Origin: Candidatus Buchananbacteria bacterium | Lineage (GTDB): Bacteria; Patescibacteriota; Patescibacteriia; Buchananbacterales; UBA6539 | Reading direction: 5' to 3' | Assembly (NCBI GenBank): GCA_041664165.1 | Contig: JBAYLH010000005.1 | Location: 344-64,343 of the forward strand | DNA: 64,000 nucleotides | Shown: piece after piece, positions 3,797-52,809 of the stretch | How positions within the stretch are numbered: the first letter of the stretch is position 1 | Layout: each line of letters opens with the position of its first letter | Program-made: the position numbers and the translations under genes | The notes under the pieces: generated by a model | What the model was told of the DNA's origin: nothing | The model's input: only the letters and a program-made list of their open reading frames with translations | Databases searched by the model: none

Positions 3797-4468
3797 TTAG
3801 TCTTTGACTAAATGTTTATTATAGCCCGCCGCCACTAACTGCTTATATGCGGCCCAGACGTCAATAGGAATTTCTTGCGGGATTTGAAAACCTTTTTCGG
3901 GATAGATTTTGAGCCGCTGCAAATCGCCGACCATAAGATTGATTACTTCATCTTGAGATTTAAATCCTTTGGAATAATCTTCAAACGCGATTGGCGGCGA
4001 AGTAACAATAGCTTCCATTTCCGGCCAAAAATTTTTAAACGTAGCATCAGCCCGGCGTTCCATATAAGGTTTTTGAACCAAAATAATTTTTTTGGGCTTT
4101 AAACCCATTTTTTCCACTAACCTTTTGGTAAACAAAATATTTTCGCCGGTATTTTGCGATTCTTTTTCAATAATAATTTTGGCCTTTGGTACGCCCATTT
4201 CTTCGGCTTTCCGAGCAAAAACCTCGGCTTCGGCTTTTCCCCACGCCGACCAGCTGGTAGAAAGCAAATCAGCCCGATGGCCGAAGCCGGTTCCGGAAAA
4301 AATAATCAATGGCGCCCAATTAGCTAAAAATAATTTAGCGGCATATTCGGCGACCCGCAAATCATGGCTGCCCAAAACTAGCATCAAATCGCCATTTTCC
4401 AGCTTTTGATTCAAGTGGTGATAATCCCAAATTTTTTTGGCCAAAAAATTAATTTGATCTTTTTCCAT
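3797..4468 (-). CDS. YdcF/DUF218 (ElyC-like) family protein
   Basis: The LVLGSH ... IIFSGTG pattern followed by EAEVFA..A...GVP and a Q.TGEN segment matches the layout of the DUF218 fold. Confidence 0.55.
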   Translation of the reverse strand: MEKDQINFLAKKIWDYHHLNQKLENGDLMLVLGSHDLRVAEYAAKLFLANWAPLIIFSGTGFGHRADLLSTSWSAWGKAEAEVFARKAEEMGVPKAKIIIEKESQNTGENILFTKRLVEKMGLKPKKIILVQKPYMERRADATFKNFWPEMEAIVTSPPIAFEDYSKGFKSQDEVINLMVGDLQRLKIYPEKGFQIPQEIPIDVWAAYKQLVAAGYNKHLVKD

Positions 4469-37421: not shown

Positions 37422-37697
37422 TTATCTTATCTTAAAATCAGAAAACTGGCTAGTCGGATCTGACCAGTTTTGTTCAATTTTTGAGACTTGAGCAGTCCCA
37501 ACTCCATTATAGCACCAATTTAAAAAATCTTTCAAGTCCGTTTCTGCCCCTTCGAGCACCAATTTAACCGTTCCATCAGACTCGTTTATCGCGTAGCCGG
37601 TGAAACCTCTCTTTTTAGCTTCTTTTTGGCTTAGATAGCGAAAGCCAACGCCCTGAACCAGGCCATGGATTTTCAGTGTTAGCTGCTTTTTCTGCAT
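37422..37697 (-). CDS. acyP: acylphosphatase
   Basis: VQGVGFR motif and GYA/V.N motif; 91 aa. Confidence 0.85.
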   Translation of the reverse strand: MQKKQLTLKIHGLVQGVGFRYLSQKEAKKRGFTGYAINESDGTVKLVLEGAETDLKDFLNWCYNGVGTAQVSKIEQNWSDPTSQFSDFKIR

Positions 37698-37791: not shown

Positions 37792-39228
37792 TTATATTTT
37801 TCTCACCACGCCATTATCCGCATCGACTTCCACTTTGTCACCGTCTTTTAAAATTTTGGTTGAGATCTTAGTCCCAACAATACAAGGTATCTTTAATTCT
37901 CTGGCAACAATCGCCGCATGACAAGTCAAACCGCCTTCATCGGTAACTATTGCCGCCGCCTTTTTCATAATCGGCAGCATCTCCGGCCGGGTCATACCGG
38001 TAACCAAAATATCGCCTGATTTCATTTTGTAAAAGCCGCTTTCGCCAAATATCACCTTAACTTCACCTGAAACTTTGCCGCCCGAAGCGACTGTCCCGGA
38101 AATTTTATCAAGCCGGCCATGAATTTTTTTGAACTCTTTTGGGATTCGTTTTTTCGCGTCATTGCCGCTGTAAACTTTAAAAAATTTCTTTTGGTAATCC
38201 ACGTCCAAAATCATAAACTCTTTTCTTTTTTTCAATTCCGCTAAGTTAAAACTTTTTCCATTTTTTAAAACCAGGAGCTCTTCAAGCGTAAAAAATTGAA
38301 GATCCGATAAGCGATAGCCGAATCTTTTTGCCAATTCTTCGCGAATGTCGTCGGCATAAAATATTGACTTGACAAAAATTTCTTTCCGCCGGTCACGCAA
38401 TGGCCCGATTTCATCAACAATATCAATCAACTGCCGGGTTTTTTTATCAAACTTGTACTTTTTAATGATCTGTTTTTTCCGTTTCTCCAAATTTTTCTTA
38501 AAATCCGCCAGGTGTTTTAATTCTTCAGTCAAATTTTTATGCTGTTTGATCAATTCATTGATTCTTTTTGCAAAATAATCGGCATCGACTAGCTTTTTGC
38601 CGCTATGGCCGGTTGCCAGCCATTCATATTTTTTAAGATGGTTGTCTAAATCCTTTTGAATTTTTCGGCCGCTTCTTTTTTTAATCGCTAACCTGATTAA
38701 CTTTTGGGCTTCCAAATTTAAGTAACTGATGTCGGGAATTGCCGCTGAATCGGAAAATTCATCGCTGGAAAGTTTATATTTCATTAATTCTTTTTCAAAA
38801 ATCCGGGGCAAAACGTAATCAAAAGCTTCGGCAAAAAAACCGTAGCTAAACATTTCTTTGTAGCATTTCGTAAAGAAGTCCAAATGACCAAATAAGGCAT
38901 CAACCGACATCGCTGACGGGTTTTTTTGCCGGTACTCCAAGATTTTTTTATCCAATTTTGACTTTAATCCGGCTAATCCTATTTTGATTTTAGCCCTGAA
39001 CTTTTTAGCTTTAAATTTGTTATAGCATTTATTGCCAATTACGATATTGTCTTTAATTAGAGTACTCCATCTAAACGGCTGATTTTTTTCCAAAATTACC
39101 AAATTGCGATCAAAGCCAAACCCGTAAATTTTTCGCATGCCGACAGTCATCGCCCAGGCCGCTTCCGGACAAATCCAATAAATCGCCTCGGCTTCGTCAA
39201 TATCCCATTTCGGATTTGTTTTTTTCAT
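37792..39228 (-). CDS. PEP-utilizer paralog 1: divergent N-terminal domain plus C-terminal phospho-histidine swivel domain (rifampicin-phosphotransferase-like C-terminal half)
   Basis: The C-terminal ~100 aa (GDILVTGMTRPEMLPIMKKAAAIVTDEGGLTCHAAIVARELKIPCIVGT) is a PEP-utilizer mobile domain with the catalytic His. It begins 10-14 nt after the stop codon of the PPDK_N gene. Confidence 0.7.
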   Translation of the reverse strand: MKKTNPKWDIDEAEAIYWICPEAAWAMTVGMRKIYGFGFDRNLVILEKNQPFRWSTLIKDNIVIGNKCYNKFKAKKFRAKIKIGLAGLKSKLDKKILEYRQKNPSAMSVDALFGHLDFFTKCYKEMFSYGFFAEAFDYVLPRIFEKELMKYKLSSDEFSDSAAIPDISYLNLEAQKLIRLAIKKRSGRKIQKDLDNHLKKYEWLATGHSGKKLVDADYFAKRINELIKQHKNLTEELKHLADFKKNLEKRKKQIIKKYKFDKKTRQLIDIVDEIGPLRDRRKEIFVKSIFYADDIREELAKRFGYRLSDLQFFTLEELLVLKNGKSFNLAELKKRKEFMILDVDYQKKFFKVYSGNDAKKRIPKEFKKIHGRLDKISGTVASGGKVSGEVKVIFGESGFYKMKSGDILVTGMTRPEMLPIMKKAAAIVTDEGGLTCHAAIVARELKIPCIVGTKISTKILKDGDKVEVDADNGVVRKI

Positions 39229-39242
39229 ACTTATTTATAACC

Positions 39243-40235
39243 TTATAATGTCGTTATTGGCCGGCTTTGAGTAATGTAAAATTTGCCCTTGGCAAAAGCC
39301 CACTCAATATCCTGCGGCTTTTTATAATGTTTTTCAATCGCCAGACAAATTTTGGCCAGCTCAATTATTTGTCTGCCGGACAGCACTTGAGTTTCCTGTT
39401 TGTTTTTCGGCACCGGCCGCCAAATATTGCCGCCGTTAATTCCTTTTTTTACCAGCATTCTTTTTTGCTCAGAGACATTAATATCAATACTGCTGAAATC
39501 CCGTTTGTCAATCACGTAGCTGTCAGGCGTAATTTGGCCGGAAACAATCGCTTCGCCCAAGCCAAAACCCGCTTCAATAATCATCTGATTTTTATCTTTG
39601 GTAACAGGGTGAACCGTAAAAGTAATCCCGGAAATTTCCGAATCAACCATTTGCTGAACCACGACGGCGACTGAAACTTTCTGGTCGCTTAATTTTTTTT
39701 CATAGCGGTAAAAAATCGCCCGCGGCGTGAAAAGCGACGACCAGCAGAGTCCGACATTTTTTAGCAATGTTTTTTCGGTTGTGTTTAAATAAGTTTCCAG
39801 TTCCCCGGCCCAGGAAGCCACGCTTGAATCTTCCGCCGTCGCCGAAGACCTGACGGCGACATACTTGGTTTTAAGTTTTTTAAATTCCTGTTTTATTTCT
39901 TCGGCTAAAACTTTGGGAATTTTGGTATCAACCATAATATCCCGGATGATATTGGAAGCCTGGTCAATTGAATTGGTGTCTTTAAAATTAACTTTTTTCA
40001 AATTGGCAGCGACTTCCAAACCCACCTCGGCCACTTCTTTTCTGGTTTTCAGGCTCAAAAAATACTCAAAAGCCTCGGCTAAAATCACAAACCCCGGCGG
40101 CACCGGAATTTTGGCTTTAGTCATTTCGCCAAGCGAAGCGCCTTTGCCGCCGGCGATGCCAACGTCAATTTTGGAAATTTGCGAAAATGGCTTGATGAAT
40201 TTAGACATAGATTTAATATCCTTGAGGTTTCCCAT
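39243..40235 (-). CDS. stand-alone PEP-utilizer ATP-binding domain (PPDK_N-like ATP-grasp), 330 aa
   Basis: GGKGASLGEM nucleotide-binding start. The size and ordering of the QQMVDSE.SG..F and IEWA blocks match the N-terminal domain of PEP synthase / pyruvate phosphate dikinase / rifampicin phosphotransferase. Confidence 0.7.
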   Translation of the reverse strand: MGNLKDIKSMSKFIKPFSQISKIDVGIAGGKGASLGEMTKAKIPVPPGFVILAEAFEYFLSLKTRKEVAEVGLEVAANLKKVNFKDTNSIDQASNIIRDIMVDTKIPKVLAEEIKQEFKKLKTKYVAVRSSATAEDSSVASWAGELETYLNTTEKTLLKNVGLCWSSLFTPRAIFYRYEKKLSDQKVSVAVVVQQMVDSEISGITFTVHPVTKDKNQMIIEAGFGLGEAIVSGQITPDSYVIDKRDFSSIDINVSEQKRMLVKKGINGGNIWRPVPKNKQETQVLSGRQIIELAKICLAIEKHYKKPQDIEWAFAKGKFYITQSRPITTL

Positions 40236-41514
40236 CTTTAATCAAAAAGAATCTACTGCCATCATCTTTTTCGCACTCAACGTTCACTTCGCCCATCAAT
40301 ATCATGTCGCAATGGACTTTAGCTCTATTAAAACTAGGGTGGCTTTTGGGAACTCCCATTGAGCCGTTACTGCCAACGGCAATATGAACCGTGCCATACA
40401 TCTTTTCGCCTTCGCTTGACCCGACGTCTTTGGCTTCTTTTCCCCGGCAAGCCATAGTGTTTGTTCCAATACCCAATTCCGCCAAGCGATAAGCATCATT
40501 ATGGCCATTATTACCGGCATTCAAATATGCTTTTACCGATTCAACTAAAGGATTGCCGGTATCATCGCTAATCGGCCGGTTATTGATTTCAGTTACCTCT
40601 CCATTTGCAATAGTCAGCCTTACCGGTCCGTGCTCGTTAACCGCATCAAGCATGTGCTCGCCGCCAATCGGGCCGTTAATCACTAAACTCCCGCTGCTGC
40701 CTTCCCAATTTGGCGAGCAGGCCCATTCGCCGATTGGATAATTACCCATCGAACCCGGCTTGGTAAAATCTTCACTCTCATAGCCCTTGGTCTCCTTAAT
40801 GATTGGCAGCCAAAGGTCGGTGCCGGCCAATGAAGTGAGATGAACTCTTTCAACATTTTTCATCAACTCATTGACTTTATCATCTCTTTCTAAAATTGCT
40901 TCCGCTGACTCCTCCACTGCGCCCTCGGTTAAAATCTCATGGGGATTCTTTCCTTTGGTAATTGAAATGATCCGACAGGCATTCTGGCGGGCAAATTGTT
41001 CCAATTTTTCCCATTGCTCATCAGATAATTTATCTTCCAGACCGGCTAGCTGGCTCTTACTTCTGGCGGCTGACAAAGTGGCGTCTAATTTTTCCCGGTC
41101 AGCAATACTGCGGATTGCCGCCCCGGTTTCTTTTGAGTGCGACCGCGACATGGAAGTAATAATTAATATTGGCGCCTGGCGCTGACTTTCCATTTCTGCC
41201 TCTACATAATCACCCATATCTTCAGCTGATCTTTCCGATTCGGTCAAAACTCTGATTCTAAAATTACCCCTAGCTTTATGTCCAGCCGTCATTGCTTCTA
41301 ATTCGCCTTGAATAGCGGCAATTAATTCCGGCTGAGACTCCATAACGCCGGTATCGGTAATTACCGTCATAGTTTCTTTTTTTGGATCAAAACCGAAGGA
41401 TCCAATAATATTTTTAGCAACCACTGCCATTCTTTCTAATCTTTCCTTTTGTTCAGGGTTTAACTCTTGGGCTGGTAAAAAATTTTCGGCAATCCCCTTC
41501 AAACTTCTTTTCAT
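40213..41514 (-). CDS. putative M29-family aminopeptidase (AmpS/aminopeptidase T-like)
   Basis: About 430 aa with a C-terminal GTVHIAVGSN ... HCDMIL metal-site-like pattern. Start taken at the Met of MKRSLKG (41514); the track ORF extends to 41586. The similarity is recalled, not searched. Confidence 0.4.
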   Translation of the reverse strand: MKRSLKGIAENFLPAQELNPEQKERLERMAVVAKNIIGSFGFDPKKETMTVITDTGVMESQPELIAAIQGELEAMTAGHKARGNFRIRVLTESERSAEDMGDYVEAEMESQRQAPILIITSMSRSHSKETGAAIRSIADREKLDATLSAARSKSQLAGLEDKLSDEQWEKLEQFARQNACRIISITKGKNPHEILTEGAVEESAEAILERDDKVNELMKNVERVHLTSLAGTDLWLPIIKETKGYESEDFTKPGSMGNYPIGEWACSPNWEGSSGSLVINGPIGGEHMLDAVNEHGPVRLTIANGEVTEINNRPISDDTGNPLVESVKAYLNAGNNGHNDAYRLAELGIGTNTMACRGKEAKDVGSSEGEKMYGTVHIAVGSNGSMGVPKSHPSFNRAKVHCDMILMGEVNVECEKDDGSRFFLIKDGKPQGY

Positions 41515-41524
41515 ATTATTATTT

Positions 41525-42349
41525 TTATTTTTTAGAGTTGCATAAAGCCACGGCATGGACGATATGCCAAAAAAAATCTTTTTCATTTCTCGTACCGTCT
41601 TCGTAAACTACGCCCAAATCCAAGTAGTTAGCTGACAACATATTCCAACCCCCCAAATAGAGCAGAGCTTTGATCCAGGAATTGCCAACCAGACCGGTGG
41701 AAGGAACAATTAGATTCCTGCCTTCCCAAACAGCGGTTTCGTACTCCATGTAATATTCTTTGGCATCATAACCTTTGTTGGTTAAATATTCATAAAATTG
41801 AGTGCATTGTTCGCTGATGTTATCCAAAATTTGGTATTCGCCGTGGTGGCTGGACGGCCGCAAAATCCCCATAACTGCAATTTTTGGTTCAATGCCGAAA
41901 TCTTCCTTCATGTGCCTAATCGTTCTTTCAACTTCATAAATTTTATCTTCTAAGTTCAAACCTTGATAAACCGAGCAGGTAGACAGAAAAAAATTATAAT
42001 CGCCTTTCTGCATTATGCCGCCAAACACCTTGCGATTGCTGGGAATGGGCTCAATTCCGAATTCTTTATAAAATACACTCAAGGTAGTTGAGTCTTTTAC
42101 TTGTCCCCTGACAATTCCTTCAACTTTGCCGTCTTTTAACAATTTAATTAAGATTTCACTTGATTTATCTTGATCCGGTTCGACAATATTTTCAAAGCCT
42201 TTTACTTTCGCGCCGACCACGACTAAATCGGCAAATTTTGAGGCCTTTTTTAGGCTTTTGATCGTTTCCGGAATCGGCCGCATAATTGCAATACCAATTT
42301 TTCTTTTTTGTTTTTTAGCTTGGGTTAAAAAAATTTTGGTAAAGTCCAT
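41525..42349 (-). CDS. phosphate acyltransferase (Pta/Ptb-like) family protein
   Basis: KRKIGIAIMRPIPETIKSLKKA ... VVVG ... KIAVMGIL resembles the PTA_PTB fold organisation. Start trimmed to the Met of MDFTKIF. Confidence 0.3.
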   Translation of the reverse strand: MDFTKIFLTQAKKQKRKIGIAIMRPIPETIKSLKKASKFADLVVVGAKVKGFENIVEPDQDKSSEILIKLLKDGKVEGIVRGQVKDSTTLSVFYKEFGIEPIPSNRKVFGGIMQKGDYNFFLSTCSVYQGLNLEDKIYEVERTIRHMKEDFGIEPKIAVMGILRPSSHHGEYQILDNISEQCTQFYEYLTNKGYDAKEYYMEYETAVWEGRNLIVPSTGLVGNSWIKALLYLGGWNMLSANYLDLGVVYEDGTRNEKDFFWHIVHAVALCNSKK

Positions 42350-42359
42350 ACATTTTAAG

Positions 42360-43133
42360 TTAATCATTAAAGATAAAAATTGGCTCCTGATAATGCCTGA
42401 TTTTATTTTCTTCAAACCTTTTTTTAATCAAGTTTTGCAGCTGCTGATTTTTCCAAGTTAAGCCCTTACTGCTTTTCAAAATAACTATCGGCAAATCAAT
42501 TCGTAAAGCCCGGCCGGAAACAAGATGGCGCGTAATCCCCGAGGGCACCTTGAGGTTTTTTTCCGCTACCAAAATGATATCTTGCGGCGTAAACTTAGGA
42601 AAAACAATTAAAGTTTTATTTTCGCCGTTAACCGAAAAATCGCTGGCATTATCCAAGCGATAAAATTTATAACGCTTGGCGTATAAATCAACAATTTTAT
42701 TTAAAGCTTCAATCTGCGTAAAAAAATCTTTCTTTTTAATCGGCCGGCAAACAATTTTATTGCCTCGCAATTTAAATTTCTTAGCCATCGGCTTGCTGAC
42801 CATTTTTTTGATCTGGCTAAAAAAATCTCTGGCCTTGATGCCGGCAACTAAATGATTCCAAGTTTTTAATTCCAGCCCCGGTTGCTGGTAATCAATGACT
42901 TGCACTAAAATATCTTTAAATCCCAATTGACGAAAAACTGTGGTCCGGTTTGCTCCGTCTAAAACGACAAATTTCCCCGACTTGCTGATTGGTGCTACGA
43001 CGGGCGGATTGGTAAAAATATCGTCTTTTTTTATTTTGGCCGCCAACCTTTTGACCCGGTTGGGATCAACATCTTCATGCAAAACCAAATTCGATAAACT
43101 GACAATTTTTAAATTAGGTAAATTTTTGGTCAT
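42360..43133 (-). CDS. ParB/sulfiredoxin-like nuclease-domain protein
   Basis: LVLHEDVDPNRVKRL ... PPVVA ... FVVLDGANRTTVFRQLG matches the ParB N-terminal (ParBc) core. Confidence 0.4.
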   Translation of the reverse strand: MTKNLPNLKIVSLSNLVLHEDVDPNRVKRLAAKIKKDDIFTNPPVVAPISKSGKFVVLDGANRTTVFRQLGFKDILVQVIDYQQPGLELKTWNHLVAGIKARDFFSQIKKMVSKPMAKKFKLRGNKIVCRPIKKKDFFTQIEALNKIVDLYAKRYKFYRLDNASDFSVNGENKTLIVFPKFTPQDIILVAEKNLKVPSGITRHLVSGRALRIDLPIVILKSSKGLTWKNQQLQNLIKKRFEENKIRHYQEPIFIFND

Positions 43134-44570: not shown

Positions 44571-46157
44571 TTATTTTCTTTTTAAAATCGTTACCACTCC
44601 GTGATTGCCGTTAACCTCGACTAGATCCCCGTCTTTGAGAACTTCCGTGGCAATTTTCGTGGCAATCACGCAGGGAATGCCCAGCTCTCGGGCAATGATG
44701 GCGGCGTGACAAGTAACTCCACCTTCGTTAGTAACAATCGCCGCGGCTTTTTTAATCCCCATGATATAATCCGGCCGCGTCATCACGGCTACCAAAATAT
44801 CGCCCGAATTAACTTTGCCGACTTCATGAGCGCTTTTGACGATTTTAACCATGCCCCGCACTTTGCCACTGGAAGCGCTTAAGCCGCGAAAATCATTAAT
44901 ATTTTTTTTGATGCCGGTTTTAAATATCGCCTTCTGCAGCTGACGAGCTTCTTTCCCGGCGACTATTTCATAAGTCTGTTTATGATCATAATGAAAACTG
45001 AATTCCCTTCGTTTTCTGGCTTCGTTTCGGGAAACATAATGCCCTTGGCCGGTAAACAAAGTTATGACTTCGAAATAAAACAGACATTTCATTTCCACCA
45101 AGGAATAACCAAAGCGTTTACCGATTTCCGCCAAAAAAACTGAGCCGCAATGAGTCGCCAGAAAAGTACATTTTTTTCGCTCGTCTTGCCAATAAGTAAA
45201 AGTTTCGGAAATTTCAATTAGATTAACCAAAAATTTGGGCAGCTTTAATTTTTTTATTAATTTCTGCTTGTTAATTTTGCTTTTTCGGGGTGAGCCTTCA
45301 ATCCTTTTAATTTGCCCGGCCAAATCAATTTCATTTTTTAACAATTCCTTGATTTCCTTGATAAAAAAAGAAATGTTTAGAATATGGCTGTCAACATAGT
45401 TATTTTTACCCCAAAAATAATTTTGCCGGTGTTTTTGCAAAATTTGATATTCGGCCGAAAAATTCCTTATTTTTTTTAAAATTAGACTCAAATTATCAGC
45501 GATAAAAATTTTTCTTAATTTCTGGTTTTGATAAATTTTCAAAGCGACTTTCAATAAAGCAATTTCCGCTTCATTGATGAATGATTGGCTGGTCGGCGCC
45601 GTCAGAACGGAAAAAATTATTCCCCGGCCTTTAATGATTTTTTTACTGTCCAAAAATTTATTTAACTCCGTTTGAATATACTCATCGCTGCCCAAGGCGA
45701 AACCATCAATAACTGAACTCATTGTTGTCCAGCCAAAATATGACCTGAAAAAATCTTGATATAAATTTTTTAATTCCTCGTCAGATAGCCTGGTTAAATT
45801 TATTTTATCCAATTCATCGCATTTTTTTATAAAAGCAATTTTATCTTTATCCCATTTCTGCATAATTTTTTTGCCGATGCCAAAGGGCTCGCAAAAACTT
45901 TTTTTAATAAAAATACTACAAACACGGCGAATATCGGCTAAATCAATATACCAATCAACCCGATTATCATTAAAAATTATCAAATGATTCGTAAATTCCC
46001 CGCCTTTTTCTTTTCTTGGTTCCGGCTTAAGCTCCATCTGGCCAATTAAATAAATAAGATTCGGACAACCGTCAAACCTTTGGTGATACCATTCTTTTTT
46101 CTTTAATTTTTTTAGGTCTTTTTTAATTAAGCCTTTTTTAAACTGCATGCAAGACAT
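44571..46157 (-). CDS. PEP-utilizer paralog 2 (divergent N-terminal domain plus His swivel domain)
   Basis: C-terminus GDILVAVMTRPDYIMGIKKAAAIVTNEGGVTCHAAIIARELGIPCVIAT. Confidence 0.7.
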   Translation of the reverse strand: MSCMQFKKGLIKKDLKKLKKKEWYHQRFDGCPNLIYLIGQMELKPEPRKEKGGEFTNHLIIFNDNRVDWYIDLADIRRVCSIFIKKSFCEPFGIGKKIMQKWDKDKIAFIKKCDELDKINLTRLSDEELKNLYQDFFRSYFGWTTMSSVIDGFALGSDEYIQTELNKFLDSKKIIKGRGIIFSVLTAPTSQSFINEAEIALLKVALKIYQNQKLRKIFIADNLSLILKKIRNFSAEYQILQKHRQNYFWGKNNYVDSHILNISFFIKEIKELLKNEIDLAGQIKRIEGSPRKSKINKQKLIKKLKLPKFLVNLIEISETFTYWQDERKKCTFLATHCGSVFLAEIGKRFGYSLVEMKCLFYFEVITLFTGQGHYVSRNEARKRREFSFHYDHKQTYEIVAGKEARQLQKAIFKTGIKKNINDFRGLSASSGKVRGMVKIVKSAHEVGKVNSGDILVAVMTRPDYIMGIKKAAAIVTNEGGVTCHAAIIARELGIPCVIATKIATEVLKDGDLVEVNGNHGVVTILKRK

Positions 46158-46242: not shown

Positions 46243-46350
46243 AAAAAAAATGGCGACCCGACTTTTCCGCCCGAGGCGGATGCGCCCTGACTGCCGTCAG
46301 GGCGGCGATAGGCAGGCTTTGGCGCAAGTCGGCATTCATTTAAATAATTT
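46243..46350. repeat. REP/BIME-like hairpin block, left flank of the RAYT gene
   Basis: The aaaaaaaatggcgacccgactt ... gtcggcattcatttaaataattt unit recurs at 46942-46996. Internal perfect hairpins: cgccctgac tgcc gtcagggcg (46283-46303) and ccgcc cga ggcgg. Confidence 0.65.
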
Positions 46351-46863
46351 ATCAAAGTTAGTTCTATCTTCCAAATTTAAGGCATTAACTGATAAAATCA
46401 GATCCTGAATCGTCTGCTCTCCATATTGAGCCGCCCCTTGCTTGCAGCTGGTAAAGGGACTGCTATTCAATTCATCAAAATTCTTGGCTTCTCCATGTTT
46501 TAAAAGATTACCTAAGATATAGCCTAAAACCTTTTTTAATTTTTCCTCGTCCACCACTTTTTCCCAATACTCGCCCCAGACGCTCCGCTTGATATTATTT
46601 AAAACATTTAATTCATGGGAACTGCCGCCGGCGATAAATTGTTCTAATTTTGGCAAAACCTCGCCTTTTGGTAAATAAATCAGGTAATGGTAATGATTGG
46701 AAATAATACTGAAGGCATGGAGCGAAAAATTAAATTTTTTTTGAGCGGCCATCAAACGATTTAAAATGATTTTCTTCTTATCAGCGGTGTCAAACAGCTT
46801 TTCATGGTTATTGGTTGAGCGAGTGACAAAATAATAGCAATCATCAAAGTATAAATGAATCAT
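46336..46863 (-). mobile_element. REP-associated tyrosine transposase (RAYT; IS200/IS605 TnpA-like, HUH Y1)
   Basis: HUH motif SNHYHYLIY, an N-terminal YYFVTRSTNNHEKLF block typical of RAYT/IS200 TnpA, and ~175 aa length. It is flanked on both sides by hairpin-rich repeats. Confidence 0.65.
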
Positions 46864-47008: not shown

Positions 47009-48334
47009 TTATTTTATTTTTCTAATTATTCCTTCATCGGCATCAACCTCAATTCTGTCACCGTCTTTAAAGACTTTCGTTGCTATTTCGGTACCAACCA
47101 CACAGGGAATTTTCAGCTCCCGGGCGACAATGGCCGAATGCGAAGTAAAGCCTCCGATATCGGCCACAATGGCTGAAACTTTATGCAAAACCGGCATATA
47201 ATCTGGCATGGTAATTTCACAAACAATAATATCACCTTTTTTTACCTTGTTGAACTCGGCCGTTGAAAGCACAACTTTTGCGATTCCTCGGACAATGCCG
47301 GCAGAAACGCCTTTGCCAGAAACTTGATCTTTTTTTTCGAAAACTCGGTTAAAAAGTTGGTAAATTTTGGCCGCCGGCTCGCCGGTATAAATATTATTTT
47401 TAATGTTGACATACCGCTTCTGTCGCAAAGTCAAATCAACTGGAATTTTTTTAGCCATAACTTCTTGGGGTTTGAGATGAATTAATTCGTCACAACTCAA
47501 ACCCAGCCGCCGGCCCAGCTCTTTGAACAAAGGATAAAAATTATAAATGCCGCGCAGAAATTGTTCAAACCGAAAATCTCGAATGTAAAGCAATCTCTGT
47601 GAAATCTCAGCTTGTTTTTTTAGTCCGGCCGGCAATTTTTTATATATCTGAAAATAACGTTTTTCGGAATTTTGATGCTGCTTTTCCATTTCCGCCAATT
47701 CCTTTTTGGGATTTTTGATGGCGGCTAGCTGTTCTTTGAGGTAAAAATCATCGACAGTTTTAAAAGCCGCCAATTCAATATTGCTCCAAGCCCATTTGGT
47801 TTTAAACTCGCTTTTTTTTATTTGGCCAGACCTGAGAAGCAATAAATCCTTTTTTCGGCGCTGGTTGTAAGTGTTGGATAAAGGGTAGGTTAAAGCGTCA
47901 AATTCTTTATTGGTTAAACCGAATCGCAAAAGCGAATTGATTAATTTTTTCTCAAAATGATATGAGGCATAAACAGAAATATCAATGATCCTTAAATAAT
48001 TGCCCCAAAGCCGATAACACTCCTTAAACGATTTAACTAGGCTGGGCCAACTAGCCTCGACAAAACTTCTCCTATATTTTTTTGAGGCGGCGACATATTC
48101 CCGCGCTCGCTTGTCAATTAAATTTATAACCTTTACGATTTCTTGATCCGATAAATAATATTTGGCTAAATCTTTTTTACTAAAAAACCATTGACCGTCA
48201 AGATAAATTAGTTCGACATTGCTAAAGCCGTCTTTAGCCATTCTTTGCCTTTCCCTAATTTCGGCCGATGACAAAAAAACTGATTCTTTGCCATAAAAAA
48301 GTTTAATGTAATTTTTCGGGTTAAGCTTAATCAT
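47009..48334 (-). CDS. PEP-utilizer paralog 3 (divergent N-terminal domain plus His swivel domain)
   Basis: C-terminus GDIIVCEITMPDYMPVLHKVSAIVADIGGFTSHSAIVARELKIPCVVGT. Confidence 0.7.
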   Translation of the reverse strand: MIKLNPKNYIKLFYGKESVFLSSAEIRERQRMAKDGFSNVELIYLDGQWFFSKKDLAKYYLSDQEIVKVINLIDKRAREYVAASKKYRRSFVEASWPSLVKSFKECYRLWGNYLRIIDISVYASYHFEKKLINSLLRFGLTNKEFDALTYPLSNTYNQRRKKDLLLLRSGQIKKSEFKTKWAWSNIELAAFKTVDDFYLKEQLAAIKNPKKELAEMEKQHQNSEKRYFQIYKKLPAGLKKQAEISQRLLYIRDFRFEQFLRGIYNFYPLFKELGRRLGLSCDELIHLKPQEVMAKKIPVDLTLRQKRYVNIKNNIYTGEPAAKIYQLFNRVFEKKDQVSGKGVSAGIVRGIAKVVLSTAEFNKVKKGDIIVCEITMPDYMPVLHKVSAIVADIGGFTSHSAIVARELKIPCVVGTEIATKVFKDGDRIEVDADEGIIRKIK

Positions 48335-49791
48335 TATATTTTTTTAACTATTCCCTCATTGGCATCAACTTCAATCCTATCCCCTGTCTTAAAAACTTGA
48401 GTGGCAATTTTAGTTCCGACAATGCACGGGATACCAAGCTCGCGCGAGACAATGGCCGCGTGACAAGTAATACCGCCATCATCCGTAACAATGGCGGCGG
48501 CTTGGCGCATGGCCGGCAAATAGTCAATGGTAGTCATTGACGCCACTAAAACACCGCCCTTTTTGACGATTTTTAAAGCTTCTCTGGCTCCTTTTACCAC
48601 AAAAGCTTGCCCTACCACCTTGCCTCGGCTAGCTGAAACACCGGTAACCTGAGAAGTTTTACTGGCCTTAATTTCTGAAAGAACCAATTTATCTAAAATT
48701 TTCTTTGCTTCCAAGCCTAAATATTCTTTGATTTTTCCTCGTTTAATCACCCAGGTTAAACCCTGCTGGCGTTCAGCAATCAGCGATTTATCAACTTTAA
48801 TATTTTTTAAACACAAATTTTTAATCTCCGAATTATCATAAAATACCAAATCTCGATATTTAAGTTTAAACCTTTTTGCCATCATTCGCAAAGCCGGAAA
48901 AATAATCTGGTTAGAACGCATTTGCGTTTCCTTTCGCCAGTCATGAAACATGGCAAAAGCATCCAAGAGATGAAAATATGGCTTTAGTTTTCCAAAAGAC
49001 AAATGATATTTATTTACCAAATCATTTCTTCCGGCTTCAACTGATTTAATAAAATTATTAATTCGTTTCAATTCCTCGCTTCTTAAATCAAAACTTTTTA
49101 TTTTCAATTTTTTTATGTCTTTTTCAATGCGGCCGACAGTCAGTTCATTGCTGCCGTCCCAGCCCATCATAATCCAGCCAAAACGCTTAGCCATTTTTTT
49201 CAAATCAGCCTGACTAACAATTTTATTCAGGGAAAATTGCAAAAGATTTTTTTTATAAAGCAAACTTTCGGAAATATAGGCGGGTTCCATCAATTGGCCT
49301 AAATCGGTTTGATTAATTTTGTTTTTGGCCATTAATTGCAGCTTTTCGCTAAAAATTTTACCAAAAAAATCATCAAATAAATCGGTAGTATATTCGGAAA
49401 AACTAATGCTTTTTAAAAACACCTGCTGGGCTTGGCGATACAAATTATACAGTTCCTGATCGGTTATATTTTTTAATTCGGCATCTCTCAAAGGCAGTAA
49501 AATTGTTTTGACCTCGCATTGGGATTTCCGGTATAAAGAAAAAATTTTATTGAATTCGGTTTTATCGGTTAGCCATTTTTTTAACCAGCGGCGCAGGGTT
49601 TTTTCCAAATAATCAGCATCGCGCGACCAGTAAAAATAATCCTGGCAATAAGCCATGACTTCATAATGATTGGCCAAATAAGGATATTTTTTCGAAGGCG
49701 AAAGCTTAATCAAATCCAAATAAGCCGACATACCTTGCGGATAAAGCCGATCCCGCTCGTAAACCCGCCAATTGATTTTTTTAGTAGGCAT
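48334..49791 (-). CDS. PEP-utilizer paralog 4
   Basis: C-terminus VLVASMTTIDYLPAMRQAAAIVTDDGGITCHAAIVSRELGIPCIVGT. Its stop overlaps the start of paralog 3 by 1 nt. Confidence 0.7.
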   Translation of the reverse strand: MPTKKINWRVYERDRLYPQGMSAYLDLIKLSPSKKYPYLANHYEVMAYCQDYFYWSRDADYLEKTLRRWLKKWLTDKTEFNKIFSLYRKSQCEVKTILLPLRDAELKNITDQELYNLYRQAQQVFLKSISFSEYTTDLFDDFFGKIFSEKLQLMAKNKINQTDLGQLMEPAYISESLLYKKNLLQFSLNKIVSQADLKKMAKRFGWIMMGWDGSNELTVGRIEKDIKKLKIKSFDLRSEELKRINNFIKSVEAGRNDLVNKYHLSFGKLKPYFHLLDAFAMFHDWRKETQMRSNQIIFPALRMMAKRFKLKYRDLVFYDNSEIKNLCLKNIKVDKSLIAERQQGLTWVIKRGKIKEYLGLEAKKILDKLVLSEIKASKTSQVTGVSASRGKVVGQAFVVKGAREALKIVKKGGVLVASMTTIDYLPAMRQAAAIVTDDGGITCHAAIVSRELGIPCIVGTKIATQVFKTGDRIEVDANEGIVKKI

Positions 49792-49792
49792 A

Positions 49793-51346
49793 TTATTTAA
49801 TTTTTTTCACTGTGCCGTTATTCATATCCATTTCAATCAAATCGTTGTTTTTTAAAATTCTAGTTGCTGTTTTTGTCCCAATAATACAGGGAACCCCAAG
49901 CTCCCGAGACACAATCGCTGCGTGGCACGTCAAACCGCCTTCGTCAGTGACAATGGCTTTGACCCGGCGCAACAAAGGCAAAAATTCCGGCCGCGTCATA
50001 GTAGTAACTAAGATATTTCCAGCTTTAAAATTCTGCCGATTAACGTCCAAAATAACCTGTGCCTTACCGCTGATTTTTTCAACCGGCGCACAAGCCACTT
50101 GGCCTTTTATTTCCGTACCGTTTAAAATTTTTGAAAACAAATTATAAATTGATTTAGCCTGGCCGCCATAAAAAATTTTTTCTTCACAGCGCCAGTTTTT
50201 TGACCGAATCACAACTTGGGCTGAAAATTTCCGCCTTGATTCTAACAAAGCAGTAAGCACTTTTTTGTTGTTTATAAGCAAATCATGAAATTCCTCTGAC
50301 GTATAGTATTTGACCAAGCCGACATCTTGTTTAAATCGTTTAGCAACTTGCTGACAAAAAATTTCGTTATAATGATCAGCTATTGTCATAAATTTTTTCC
50401 GGTCATCTATCCATTCTGCCATATAAGCTACGATTAAAAAATGCCGTTTTAAATTTTTAGAAAAATTATATTGTTTTAGGTATTTTTTCTTGGCTTGTTT
50501 GAGTCGGGAAACTTTTGTTGAAAAATTATTAAATATTGCCAATAATTCATTTTTAGTTTTCTCTAATGCCAAAATTTTCATCCGATCTAAAAAATACTGC
50601 TCATCTAATATCTGAGCTTTTTGAAAATTATTACCAATCCAAAAATAGCTTTTAACTAATTTTTTAAGTATTATTCGTAAAGTCGGCAGTTTTAAAATAA
50701 TTTTTTCAGATTCAATTTTGTTTTTGTCTGATAAAATTTTGTAGGCCAAAATTGCTCCCTTGAAAATTAGATACTCTTCTTTTTCTAAAAATGACAACTT
50801 TACCGGCGCGGAAAAAGTTATGGCAATATCCAAAGCTTTATTTTCAGATAAGCCGGAAGTTTCTTTTTTAATTAACCCAATCAATTTTTCGCTGGAAAAA
50901 ATATCAGTACACTCTAAAGCCATGCCATAGCGAATAAAATCCATATAAGCTTTTTCACCATAAAAATTTTGATAAAACTTCCATAATTGTTTATTATTGA
51001 CATTGGAAATATTTTTTTCCAATATTTTGCCAGCCGCTAGAAAATGACTGACAAATTTTTCACTGGCCTTTCTCAAATTTTTTAAATAATTTTTATTTTT
51101 TAAAACCTGATCATAAATATAATAATAAACCTTTAATTTCTCATCGGCTGGAGTCAATTCGGAAAAAAAATCATTGCGATAGATAAAAACAGACAAGGTT
51201 AGATATTTTGGATGAAAATATTTAGCTTGCTCAATAAAAGCTCTAAGTGGCCATCCAACGAAAGCGTAAACCCCTGGCGCTTCTTCCAACCACCAAGTAT
51301 GATTATTAATCTCTTCTAATACTGATGACAAATTAATATTTTTCAT
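49793..51346 (-). CDS. PEP-utilizer paralog 5
   Basis: C-terminus GNILVTTMTRPEFLPLLRRVKAIVTDEGGLTCHAAIVSRELGVPCIIGT. Confidence 0.7.
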   Translation of the reverse strand: MKNINLSSVLEEINNHTWWLEEAPGVYAFVGWPLRAFIEQAKYFHPKYLTLSVFIYRNDFFSELTPADEKLKVYYYIYDQVLKNKNYLKNLRKASEKFVSHFLAAGKILEKNISNVNNKQLWKFYQNFYGEKAYMDFIRYGMALECTDIFSSEKLIGLIKKETSGLSENKALDIAITFSAPVKLSFLEKEEYLIFKGAILAYKILSDKNKIESEKIILKLPTLRIILKKLVKSYFWIGNNFQKAQILDEQYFLDRMKILALEKTKNELLAIFNNFSTKVSRLKQAKKKYLKQYNFSKNLKRHFLIVAYMAEWIDDRKKFMTIADHYNEIFCQQVAKRFKQDVGLVKYYTSEEFHDLLINNKKVLTALLESRRKFSAQVVIRSKNWRCEEKIFYGGQAKSIYNLFSKILNGTEIKGQVACAPVEKISGKAQVILDVNRQNFKAGNILVTTMTRPEFLPLLRRVKAIVTDEGGLTCHAAIVSRELGVPCIIGTKTATRILKNNDLIEMDMNNGTVKKIK

Positions 51347-52809
51347 ATTTTTTTAACTGTCCCCTTGCCAGTATCAACTTCTACCAAGTCCCCGTCTTTC
51401 AAAACCTTGGTGGCAATTTTGGTGCCGACAATGCACGGTATGCCAAGCTCGCGCGAAACAATGGCCGCGTGGCTAGTCATCCCGCCTTCGTCAGTGATAA
51501 TGGCGGCGGCCTTTTTAATCACGACAATATAATCGGGCGAAGTCATCGGGGTGACTAAAATTTCGCCTTTTTCCATGGTTTTGAAATCAGCGGCGGAATT
51601 TATAATCCTGACTTTCGCCGCAACTTTTTTGCCGCGGCTGACCACCAAACCCTTAAATTCACTGATTTTTTTATTGGCGGCCTTTGCCGCGGGCGGAATA
51701 AATTGAGCGATAATCTTTTTTGCCGGCGCGCCGGAAACATATTTCAAAGAATTGCTATTCTGCGAATAATGAACGACTAAATAATTCTGCCGACTTTTGA
51801 TTTCTTCGGCGGAAATTTTTTTACCCTTCTCGGCCAAATCCAAAGTCTCATAAACATTGTAAAAATGCAGATCATTAAAACTCAGGCCGTATCGTCTGGC
51901 AAATTCAGCCAAAAATAAGTCAATATAATGATTGGCCAAAAAAATGTAATATTTCCTTAAATCTTGCCACCAAACGCAAAAACTCAAACGGCTGGCGATT
52001 TTTTTAATTACCGGCGTAATTTTATATTTCCTGGCCAATTCGTCTTTTTCCTTTTTCACCCGCCGACTGAAAAATTCTAATTCTTTAATTTTAGCTTGGG
52101 CTTTTTTCAAGCTATAACCGGCCAGTTCATTTTCAAAATATTTTCTATCTAAAATTTTAGTATGATGATAGCTGTTTAAAAGCCAAAAATGGTTTTTTTG
52201 ATAATTAACTAATTTACTTTCGAATAAGGCCTGACGCTTTTCATATTTTTTTAATTTTAGCAGCTCCAAATCCGCCTTTTGATAAAAAGATAAATTTTCC
52301 GGAGCCGACAACCTTTCAAAAACAAAAATAAAATCTTTTGGCTGAATTATTTTTTCCAAAATTTTTTTTAAAATATCCTCCGCTCCCCAATTCGCGACTT
52401 CCGGCAATAAACCGAATTTCCAGAAATTGACATAAGCTTTGACCCAATTTTTATAAAATTTCGCCAGCTGCCGGTCGGTTAAATTCCTCAGCCGATCTTT
52501 TGTTATATCTTTTTGCAAATCCAACAAAAGATTAACGCTATTATGCCATAGCCCATAATACCGTTTTAAATTTTTACCAGCCAAAACAAACCGATTAAAA
52601 TTATTCCGCCCGCTTTTTCTTAAATTGGCAAAATCGACTATGGCAATCATTTTGTCCGGATAATATTCCAGCCATAAAACATCGGGCCAGCTATAAAAAG
52701 TTTTTTGGTACTGCGTGAAAGCTACATTAAAAAAATCGGGGTAAATCAACTTGCCGTCAATCGGACCCCAACGAAATAATTCCGCCTTCGGGTTGATATC
52801 AATCTTCAT
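51343..52809 (-). CDS. PEP-utilizer paralog 6
   Basis: C-terminus GEILVTPMTSPDYIVVIKKAAAIITDEGGMTSHAAIVSRELGIPCIVGT. It overlaps paralog 5 by 4 nt. Confidence 0.7.
   Translation of the reverse strand: MKIDINPKAELFRWGPIDGKLIYPDFFNVAFTQYQKTFYSWPDVLWLEYYPDKMIAIVDFANLRKSGRNNFNRFVLAGKNLKRYYGLWHNSVNLLLDLQKDITKDRLRNLTDRQLAKFYKNWVKAYVNFWKFGLLPEVANWGAEDILKKILEKIIQPKDFIFVFERLSAPENLSFYQKADLELLKLKKYEKRQALFESKLVNYQKNHFWLLNSYHHTKILDRKYFENELAGYSLKKAQAKIKELEFFSRRVKKEKDELARKYKITPVIKKIASRLSFCVWWQDLRKYYIFLANHYIDLFLAEFARRYGLSFNDLHFYNVYETLDLAEKGKKISAEEIKSRQNYLVVHYSQNSNSLKYVSGAPAKKIIAQFIPPAAKAANKKISEFKGLVVSRGKKVAAKVRIINSAADFKTMEKGEILVTPMTSPDYIVVIKKAAAIITDEGGMTSHAAIVSRELGIPCIVGTKIATKVLKDGDLVEVDTGKGTVKKI

Follow-up and report, generated by a model that had tools for sequence, protein, structure and literature searches.

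The window analysed here is a 64-kb stretch of contig JBAYLH010000005.1 (assembly GCA_041664165.1), which comes from a Candidatus Buchananbacteria bacterium. It contains a gene for a stand-alone PPDK_N (ATP-grasp) domain and, a few nucleotides downstream, a gene for a protein that ends in a phosphohistidine swivel domain. We refer to the ATP-grasp gene and its protein as P, and to partner proteins that combine a substrate domain (X) with a C-terminal swivel domain as S; the window encodes six of these, S1 to S6 (paralogs 1–6). P, the spacer that follows it and all six S genes are on the minus strand (Table 1). A sequence-only reading of the window had seen P and S1 as the two parts of one enzyme of about 808 amino acids, divided at its domain boundary either by a real gene fission or by a recent disruption.

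P is encoded by an open reading frame (ORF) that runs from 40235 down to 39243, this gives 330 amino acids from the first ATG, and the stop codon is the TAA at 39245–39243. Database calls and the N-termini of homologues favour M10, at 40208, which is likely the true start and gives a protein of 321 amino acids. The C-terminus reads ...FYITQSRPITTL-TAA, the last residues being QSRPITTL. S1 begins with its own ATG at 39228 and ends at 37792. The two proteins together comprise 330+478 = 808 amino acids, in agreement with the earlier estimate, or 799 if translation of P starts at M10. The spacer after the stop codon is indeed very short; it had been put at 10–14 nt and is exactly 14 nt.

Translation of the junction shows that P and S1 are in different frames, so the lack of frame continuity noted earlier is borne out. 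There are stops in all three frames: the frame of P has TAA, TAA and TGA, in that of S1 a TAA precedes the ATG by 9 nt, and the third frame likewise has a stop just upstream. The sequence-only reading had allowed that a single-base error might hide one continuous ORF, but no single substitution or indel yields a single ORF across the junction. The 101 nt around the junction are also identical in four independent assemblies (JGI 3300037810, ENA ERZ27249449, Logan SRR6484324 and Logan SRR18595301), which come from different samples and pipelines. One of the four is a strain variant that is 99.45% identical, with 41 single nucleotide polymorphisms (SNPs) over 7.4 kb. This strain (L084) has no differences in P or S1, and the strain comparison is therefore uninformative on selection. 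The 14-nt spacer is too short to hold a promoter or a terminator. In a scan for promoters and terminators from 36.8 to 53.6 kb, terminator-like sites were no more frequent than expected by chance, and the sole one near the junction falls within the coding sequence of P. At the corresponding P-to-S junctions of relatives the spacers measure -4, 1, 2, 3, 3, 5, 12 and 33 nt.

P can be aligned end to end with residues 3–316 of the Listeria rifampin phosphotransferase (RPH-Lm, 5fbs; E=4e-62). Further alignments are to the crystal construct 5hv6, which consists of the ATP-grasp domain only, and to an archaeal phosphoenolpyruvate (PEP) synthase (PEPS; 8a8e, E=3e-71). The last aligned motif is QSRPITT(L) in all three alignments, which corresponds to residues 309–316 of RPH-Lm and to the end of 5hv6. 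[quoted passage not shown] The residues K22, R117 and T136 of the RPH ATP site have been demonstrated by mutagenesis (PMC4844700). These correspond to K31, R129 and T148 of P, which are invariant among 15 orthologs. P is the sole PPDK_N protein of the window; tblastn found no second one in the 64 kb.

The swivel domain (PF00391) is present in all six S proteins with E-values of 1e-24 to 6e-28. S2 to S6 share one layout, an N-terminal region of about 330–440 amino acids with no Pfam assignment followed by the C-terminal swivel domain. The GGxT[CS]H motif with the catalytic histidine is found in all six, each with a threonine two residues before the histidine (37918–37926 on the minus strand in S1). 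His437 of S1 aligns with the catalytic histidine of PEPS and RPH. Since K31, R129 and T148 of P and His437 of S1 are kept, the catalytic residues are conserved in both components. The second active site of RPH contains the phosphotransfer motif R666-E667-x-x-K670. In a profile alignment D279 of S1 is opposite E667 and K282 is opposite K670, the arginine being offset by three positions. The conserved D-x-R-K motif occurs in five of the six paralogs; S3 reads DFRF.

The sequence of S1 matches solved structures through the swivel domain only, and a profile of 41 homologues extends the alignment to residues 647–866 of RPH (E=3e-28). An AlphaFold2 model of S1 has a predicted local distance difference test score (pLDDT) of 93.8 and a predicted template-modelling (pTM) score of 0.92. 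The best Foldseek matches of this model in the PDB are to RPH-Lm (5fbt, 5fbu and 5hv1) over the whole chain, with E about 1e-13 and template-modelling (TM) scores of 0.57–0.58. The modelled fold matches the rifampicin (RIF)-binding and swivel domains of RPH. Pairwise comparison of the six paralogs gives a median identity of 54% for the swivel domain and 21% for the X domain. The PEP/pyruvate-binding TIM-barrel (PF02896) is absent from all seven proteins, and Pfam and NCBIfam scans find no ATP- or PEP-binding domain in the S proteins themselves.

Table 1. Features of the P and S genes in the window. L001, L003 and L013 are loci of relatives.
Feature	Position	Strand	Details
P, stand-alone ATP-grasp (PPDK_N) component	39243..40235	-	PF01326, E=3e-93, profile positions 3-311 of 328
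Intergenic spacer of 14 nt, stop of P to ATG of S1	39229..39242	-	sequence ggttataaataagt
S1 (paralog 1), RIF-binding-domain-like substrate domain and C-terminal phosphohistidine swivel domain	37792..39228	-	478 aa; PF00391, E=5e-27, aa 403-473
His437 codon of S1, predicted phosphocarrier histidine	37918..37920	-	motif GGLTCHAAI; invariant in 41-sequence alignment A2
D279-R280-R281-K282 codons of S1, D-x-R-K motif	38383..38394	-	R281 invariant; D279 and K282 at least 90% conserved (alignment A2)
S2 (paralog 2), X and swivel domains	44571..46157	-	528 aa; PF00391, E=2e-25; orthologs 68-79% identical in L001, L013
S3 (paralog 3), X and swivel domains	47009..48334	-	441 aa; PF00391, E=4e-25; ortholog 61% identical in L001
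S4 (paralog 4), X and swivel domains	48334..49791	-	485 aa; PF00391, E=4e-25; orthologs 53-61% identical in L001, L013
S5 (paralog 5), X and swivel domains	49793..51346	-	517 aa; PF00391, E=1e-24
S6 (paralog 6), X and swivel domains	51343..52809	-	488 aa; PF00391, E=6e-28; orthologs 52-56% identical in L003, L013

The split is conserved across relatives. The best 120 database homologues of P listed are 64–100% identical to it, come from Falkowbacteria, Buchananbacteria and other Patescibacteria, and are 258–369 amino acids long, most of them 310–345; PPDK_N is the sole Pfam domain in all 120. A scan of one genome per species gave 80 loci, and ORF and domain maps were made for 81 non-redundant loci from Patescibacteria and DPANN archaea, each spanning up to 10 kb either side of P. 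Whether orthologous loci are fused or split had been singled out in the sequence-only reading as the comparison that bears on the junction. A stand-alone P of at least 290 amino acids is found in 74 of the 81 loci. Five contain P only as a fused P-X-swivel protein (L070, 672 amino acids; L072, 714; L078, 1246; L079, 836; L082, 811), and the remaining two (L006 and L015) contain fragments of P. The ATP-grasp gene of L015 (1070–2173) lies in ORFs of 156 and 190 amino acids and, unlike the window, has the look of a genuine recent disruption or an assembly error. The extra PPDK_N copies in L049 and L054 are genuine PEP synthases with PF02896.

Buchananbacteria contigs keep the full synteny, which consists of the S array, small ORFs, a NicX/M29-like gene, P, an S gene and the gene for ribosomal protein L9, followed by CTP synthase and DUF1846 genes in either order. 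The P-to-S junction in these contigs is 1 nt or a 4-nt overlap. In a neighbour-joining tree of ATP-grasp domains (200 bootstraps; a simple distance tree, to be read as indicative) the P of the window falls in a large clade of split forms only, and the true PEP synthases are an outgroup with 100% support. The five RPH-type fused forms and three split forms make up one subclade with 99% support, and the fused forms alone are monophyletic in 0 of 200 bootstraps. This placement indicates that the split is old and widespread and that fusion or fission recurred in one subclade. The ATP-grasp genes of L070 (Iainarchaeum) and L078 (Woesearchaeota) nest with those of Patescibacteria in a 99%-supported clade, a pattern that suggests gene transfer between bacteria of the candidate phyla radiation (CPR) and DPANN archaea. 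We show that the split is genuine, old and under selection; with 74 of 81 loci split, one junction in four assemblies and invariant ATP-site residues, the recent disruption that had been considered finds no place here.

Division of a dikinase at this position is known from phenol-degrading bacteria. HpeHI from Rhodococcus, CreHI from Corynebacterium and the phenylphosphate synthase PpsAB are two-component small-molecule dikinases (PMC12167813). HpeI (PDB 9GOJ) is a homologue of RPH's ATP-grasp domain and HpeH of its RIF-binding and swivel domains (PMC12167813). These enzymes are split at the same place as P and S, into an ATP-grasp protein of about 40 kDa and a partner with the substrate domain and the swivelling histidine (PMC12167813). 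Their genes are adjacent, as are those of P and S1, which are also co-oriented. In HpeHI-type enzymes both components are required, no stable complex is formed and the histidine mutant is inactive (PMC12167813). The mechanism of these enzymes involves a transient complex and a swivelling histidine (PMC12167813).

The two groups also differ. HpeHI-type enzymes are 1:1 pairs encoded in aromatic-catabolism clusters of Actinobacteria and Proteobacteria, whereas P and S occur at 1:6 (0–7 S genes in relatives) in Patescibacteria and DPANN archaea; no aromatic-catabolism families were found among the neighbour genes scanned. The S proteins, at 441–528 amino acids, are smaller than HpeH (71 kDa). HpeI matches P with E=2.5e-49, which is weaker than the matches to the fused PEPS (3e-71) or RPH (4e-63). 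The residue two before the histidine is threonine in S, as in PEPS, and methionine in HpeH and RPH (PMC12167813). Because HpeI is a more distant match to P than the fused PEPS and RPH are, and because the threonine is of the PEPS type, the CPR split proteins probably represent a lineage separate from HpeHI.

Since a separate ATP-grasp protein with an RPH-like substrate and swivel partner has already been characterised, the flagged junction can be read as an ordinary gene boundary. We are highly confident that P and S are a genuine, conserved two-component dikinase. We also consider it probable that 39229–39242 marks the normal border between two genes of an RPH-like small-molecule dikinase with two components, in which a single P charges six S proteins. 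P and S1 would be co-transcribed. ATP would be bound by the free-standing ATP-grasp subunit P, on which the swivel domain of an S protein would dock transiently. The swivel histidine (H437 in S1) would accept the beta-phosphate, with release of AMP and Pi, and the domain would then return to its own X domain and hand the phosphate to a small-molecule substrate, a step in which the D-x-R-K motif may assist. Because P is separate and diffusible, we infer that one P could charge all six divergent S proteins and act as a general ATP-driven component that feeds several substrate-specific ones. This chemistry is proposed by homology with RPH, HpeHI and PpsAB.

The number and order of the S genes bear on such sharing. 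The ratio of P to S in the window is 1:6. Among the related loci, 173 of the 175 S genes of at least 300 amino acids are on the strand of P. The 74 loci with a stand-alone P include 60 with at least one S gene, 42 with at least two and 24 with at least four. The 35 loci that span 18 kb or more have 0–7 S genes, with a median of three. An S gene is the immediate downstream neighbour of P in 17 loci and, about equally often, its immediate upstream neighbour (15 loci). In the closest relatives (L013 and L088) P is followed by a different S of 495 amino acids, and the ortholog of S1 (74% identical) lies three genes further on. S1 should therefore not simply be equated with a missing half of P. The sequence-only reading was right about the split at the domain boundary, but one enzyme of 808 amino acids cut in two is too simple a description.

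P is also better conserved than its partners. The six S proteins of the window have 1:1 orthologs in close relatives only (52–79% identity). S proteins of other CPR lineages are about 30–35% identical to any S of the window, compared with about 60–75% for P, and the identity of P across species is about 60–87%. Tandem S-S fusions are common; these homologues are about 700–830 amino acids long and have two swivel domains and no ATP-grasp domain (examples are P0028, P0030, P0035, P0039, P0041, P0044, P0062 and P0066). Some of them carry PF01989 labels, which fall below the Pfam threshold in a direct scan. A P-X-swivel-X-swivel fusion of 1246 amino acids is encoded at 4303–8043 of L078 (Woesearchaeota contig CAZYZS010000033.1), with swivel domains at residues 547–654 and 1133–1238. 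It is followed, with a 4-nt overlap, by a swivel protein of 365 amino acids. Shorter swivel proteins of about 340–380 amino acids are also found in P/S clusters (L033 12496–13569, L083 10962–11990, L059 10015–13297 and others). In those of L033 and L083 only the swivel domain of about 105 amino acids aligns with the S proteins of the window, they presumably have a different N-terminal domain.

The sequence-only reading had supposed that fission might let the ATP-grasp module serve the other five paralogs. We infer the same from the genes, and it fits all the comparative evidence, namely the one-to-many ratios, the variable order and the P-S-S and S-S fusions. On balance we lean slightly towards a P that is shared by several S proteins, which is the best-supported reading. 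An ATP-driven hub-and-spoke system in Patescibacteria and DPANN archaea, in which one highly conserved P would charge the swivel histidine of up to seven or more variable, rapidly evolving S proteins, some of them fused as S-S or P-S-S, is a proposal we regard as evenly poised. A one-to-many arrangement of P and S appears to be undescribed in the searchable literature; on such clusters in CPR, literature searches yielded nothing beyond an incidental tally of 'rph' hits in one survey of the CPR resistome.

Several observations weigh against this reading of P and S as a dikinase with one shared P. Four of the 35 large loci have a P with no S gene within 10 kb, so the clustering of P with S is not universal. 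The count of P covers 64 kb of the genome, and there may be further P genes elsewhere. R666 of RPH is not exactly aligned with the invariant R281 of S1, and S3 has phenylalanine where the lysine of the motif is expected. Higher conservation of the swivel than of the X domain would be expected for any member of the family, alone it is no sign of a shared partner. P could instead be a dedicated enzyme that pairs with S1 only, in the manner of HpeI and HpeH. S2 to S6 would then depend on ATP-grasp proteins encoded elsewhere or on another phosphodonor, or would only transfer phosphate from phosphorylated to unphosphorylated substrates. The two-component dikinases characterised so far are all 1:1 pairs, and HpeH by itself can shuttle phosphate between product and substrate (PMC12167813). 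P and S1, 14 nt apart, are the most tightly linked pair here, and the inspected portion of the genome is 64 kb. Nevertheless we think a dedicated pair rather unlikely. The window has no second PPDK_N, and just two of the 81 related loci have one, in each case that of a true PEP synthase. Many species have S only upstream of P, or a non-orthologous S after it. The natural P-S-S and S-S fusions, and S proteins that have no ATP- or PEP-binding domain, also argue against exclusive pairing with S1.

Three further explanations were weighed. If a fused RPH-like gene of about 808 codons had been broken by a nonsense or frameshift mutation, the two ORFs would be decaying remnants. Their combined length does resemble that of the fused relatives (672–836 amino acids), and such breaks occur, as in L015. 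This explanation is nonetheless extremely improbable given a stand-alone form in 74 of the 81 loci and in each of the 120 best homologues listed, a P that ends exactly at the domain boundary before a gene with its own ATG, stops in all three frames, invariant catalytic residues, and orthologs that are 52–87% identical in conserved synteny. A sequencing or assembly artefact, in which a single-base error makes an apparent stop or frameshift, is a general possibility in metagenome assemblies and has nothing beyond that in its favour; four independent assemblies with one 101-nt junction, one of them from a strain with 41 SNPs in 7.4 kb, and frames that no single-base change can join leave it hardly any credence. 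Programmed recoding, by ribosomal frameshifting or readthrough, would yield a fused P-S1 protein and would suit a short spacer between ORFs in different frames. We give it practically no weight, because there are stops in all three frames across the junction, the length and sequence of the spacer are not conserved (4-nt overlap to 33 nt in relatives), and the downstream gene in the nearest relatives is a different S.

The ordinary gene boundary of a two-component dikinase thus remains the preferred reading, and P and S can be compared with further members of the family. RPH-Lm (PDB 5FBS, 5FBT and 5HV1) has the same three modules in the same order, ATP-grasp, substrate-binding and C-terminal swivel histidine, but in a single polypeptide, whereas in P and S they are on two. 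P retains the ATP-site residues of RPH, and S1 has an acidic residue and a lysine that align with those at the second active site of RPH, with the arginine offset. Outside the apex region, the sequence of the X domain of S shows no similarity to the RIF-binding pocket. By sequence, both the ATP-grasp domain (E=3e-71) and the swivel domain (E=4e-27; profile E=9e-51) are matched best by PEPS (PDB 8A8E; TIGR01418), which shares the GGxT[S/C]HAAI motif, including the threonine, with S. PEPS differs in having a PF02896 domain, and the swivel domain of S follows, at the C-terminus, a substrate domain of another kind. The true PEPS copies in L049 and L054 are a distant outgroup to P. The prodigiosin ligases PigC and RedH, ATP-dependent condensing enzymes with the RPH architecture, also belong to this three-module family. 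Their NCBIfam models match P with E=2e-70 and S with about E=1e-18 to 1e-23, partly reaching the X domain, with scores far below the cut-off. Unlike P and S, PigC and RedH are fused proteins, and the P/S cluster has no pigment-biosynthesis context.

No protein reaches a curated NCBIfam cut-off for RPH, PEPS or PigC/RedH. For RPH, P scores 274.6 bits and S1 62.8 bits with NF041857 (cut-off 999), and 190 and 49 bits with NF000283 (cut-off 1700). For PEPS (TIGR01418 and NF005057), P scores 314–323 bits and the six S proteins 101–130 bits, the cut-offs being 598–740. For P and S, annotation as 'PEP synthase', 'pyruvate, water dikinase' or 'rifampin phosphotransferase' is not justified. The RPH scores lie far under their cut-offs, and nothing points to rifamycin as a substrate.

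The bacterial phosphotransferase system (PTS; Enzyme I with several sugar-specific components) resembles the proposed arrangement in logic only, in that one general phosphoryl-charging component serves, or in the case of P and S would serve, several specific acceptors. The swivel domain of PTS Enzyme I is homologous to that of S. The donor in the PTS is PEP, whereas ATP, through the ATP-grasp domain, is the proposed donor for P and S, which have no HPr or EII. VadK (Rv1127c) of M. tuberculosis was considered as an analogue and rejected, its ATP-binding and histidine domains are in one protein, which is a different architecture.

The split itself is ordinary, as a two-component architecture is known from aromatic-compound catabolism. 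The possible importance lies in the arrangement, in which one conserved P is clustered with several rapidly diversifying S genes in many Patescibacteria and some DPANN archaea. If P does serve many S proteins, this would be a compact way for genome-reduced cells to phosphorylate many different small molecules, such as scavenged nutrients, antibiotics or signals; with a single ATP-binding module, ultra-small, scavenging cells would obtain a whole modular set of kinases for small molecules. The RPH-like 'small-molecule dikinase' family would then include a one-to-many system. A shared P would also call for caution with 'PEP synthase', 'pyruvate, water dikinase' or rifampicin-resistance labels in surveys of the CPR resistome.

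Across species only P and S co-occur in the 81 loci. The NicX/M29-like gene, orf296, orf257, orf210, orf229 and the acylphosphatase gene were considered as clues to function and set aside, as they are found in 1–7 of the 81 loci, in close relatives only. A fusion with UDP-N-acetylglucosamine (UDP-GlcNAc) 2-epimerase (PF02350, Epimerase_2), annotated on several homologues of about 800 amino acids and pointing to a sugar kinase, was also rejected; the matches are sub-threshold (19–29 bits against 30.6) and lie on the swivel domain itself, and the proteins are S-S tandems with two swivel domains.

An IS200-like Y1 transposase ORF (PF01797, E=1e-6) is found at 46336–46863 on the minus strand, between S3 and S2. 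In L001 (Buchananbacteria) the orthologs of S2 and S3 abut or overlap, and tblastn finds no match to the transposase ORF in any of the 81 loci of relatives, as if it had been inserted in this lineage only.

Upstream of P, a 457-amino-acid ORF lies immediately before it at 40213–41586 (minus strand). It has no match in the Pfam copy scanned, but precomputed Pfam annotation assigns PF26233 (NicX) to it and its orthologs, and the orthologs are also assigned Peptidase_M29. The 296-amino-acid ORF at 41525–42415 (minus strand) matches the methanogenesis marker protein Mmp4/MtxX (E=5e-15, below the cut-off). Both ORFs are syntenic with P in close relatives only. The 257-amino-acid ORF at 42360–43133 (minus strand), which is in the same-strand cluster of P, is conserved in two close relatives only. 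Its NCBIfam matches, both below the cut-off, are to the O-phospho-L-serine synthase (free serine kinase) SbnI (E=2e-29) and to the archaeal ADP-dependent serine kinase SerK (E=7e-14).

Directly downstream of S1 there is an acylphosphatase gene (37422–37697, minus strand; PF00708, E=4e-23). This gene follows the ortholog of S1 in L003, L013 and L088, and is just downstream of P in L004, L015 and L017.

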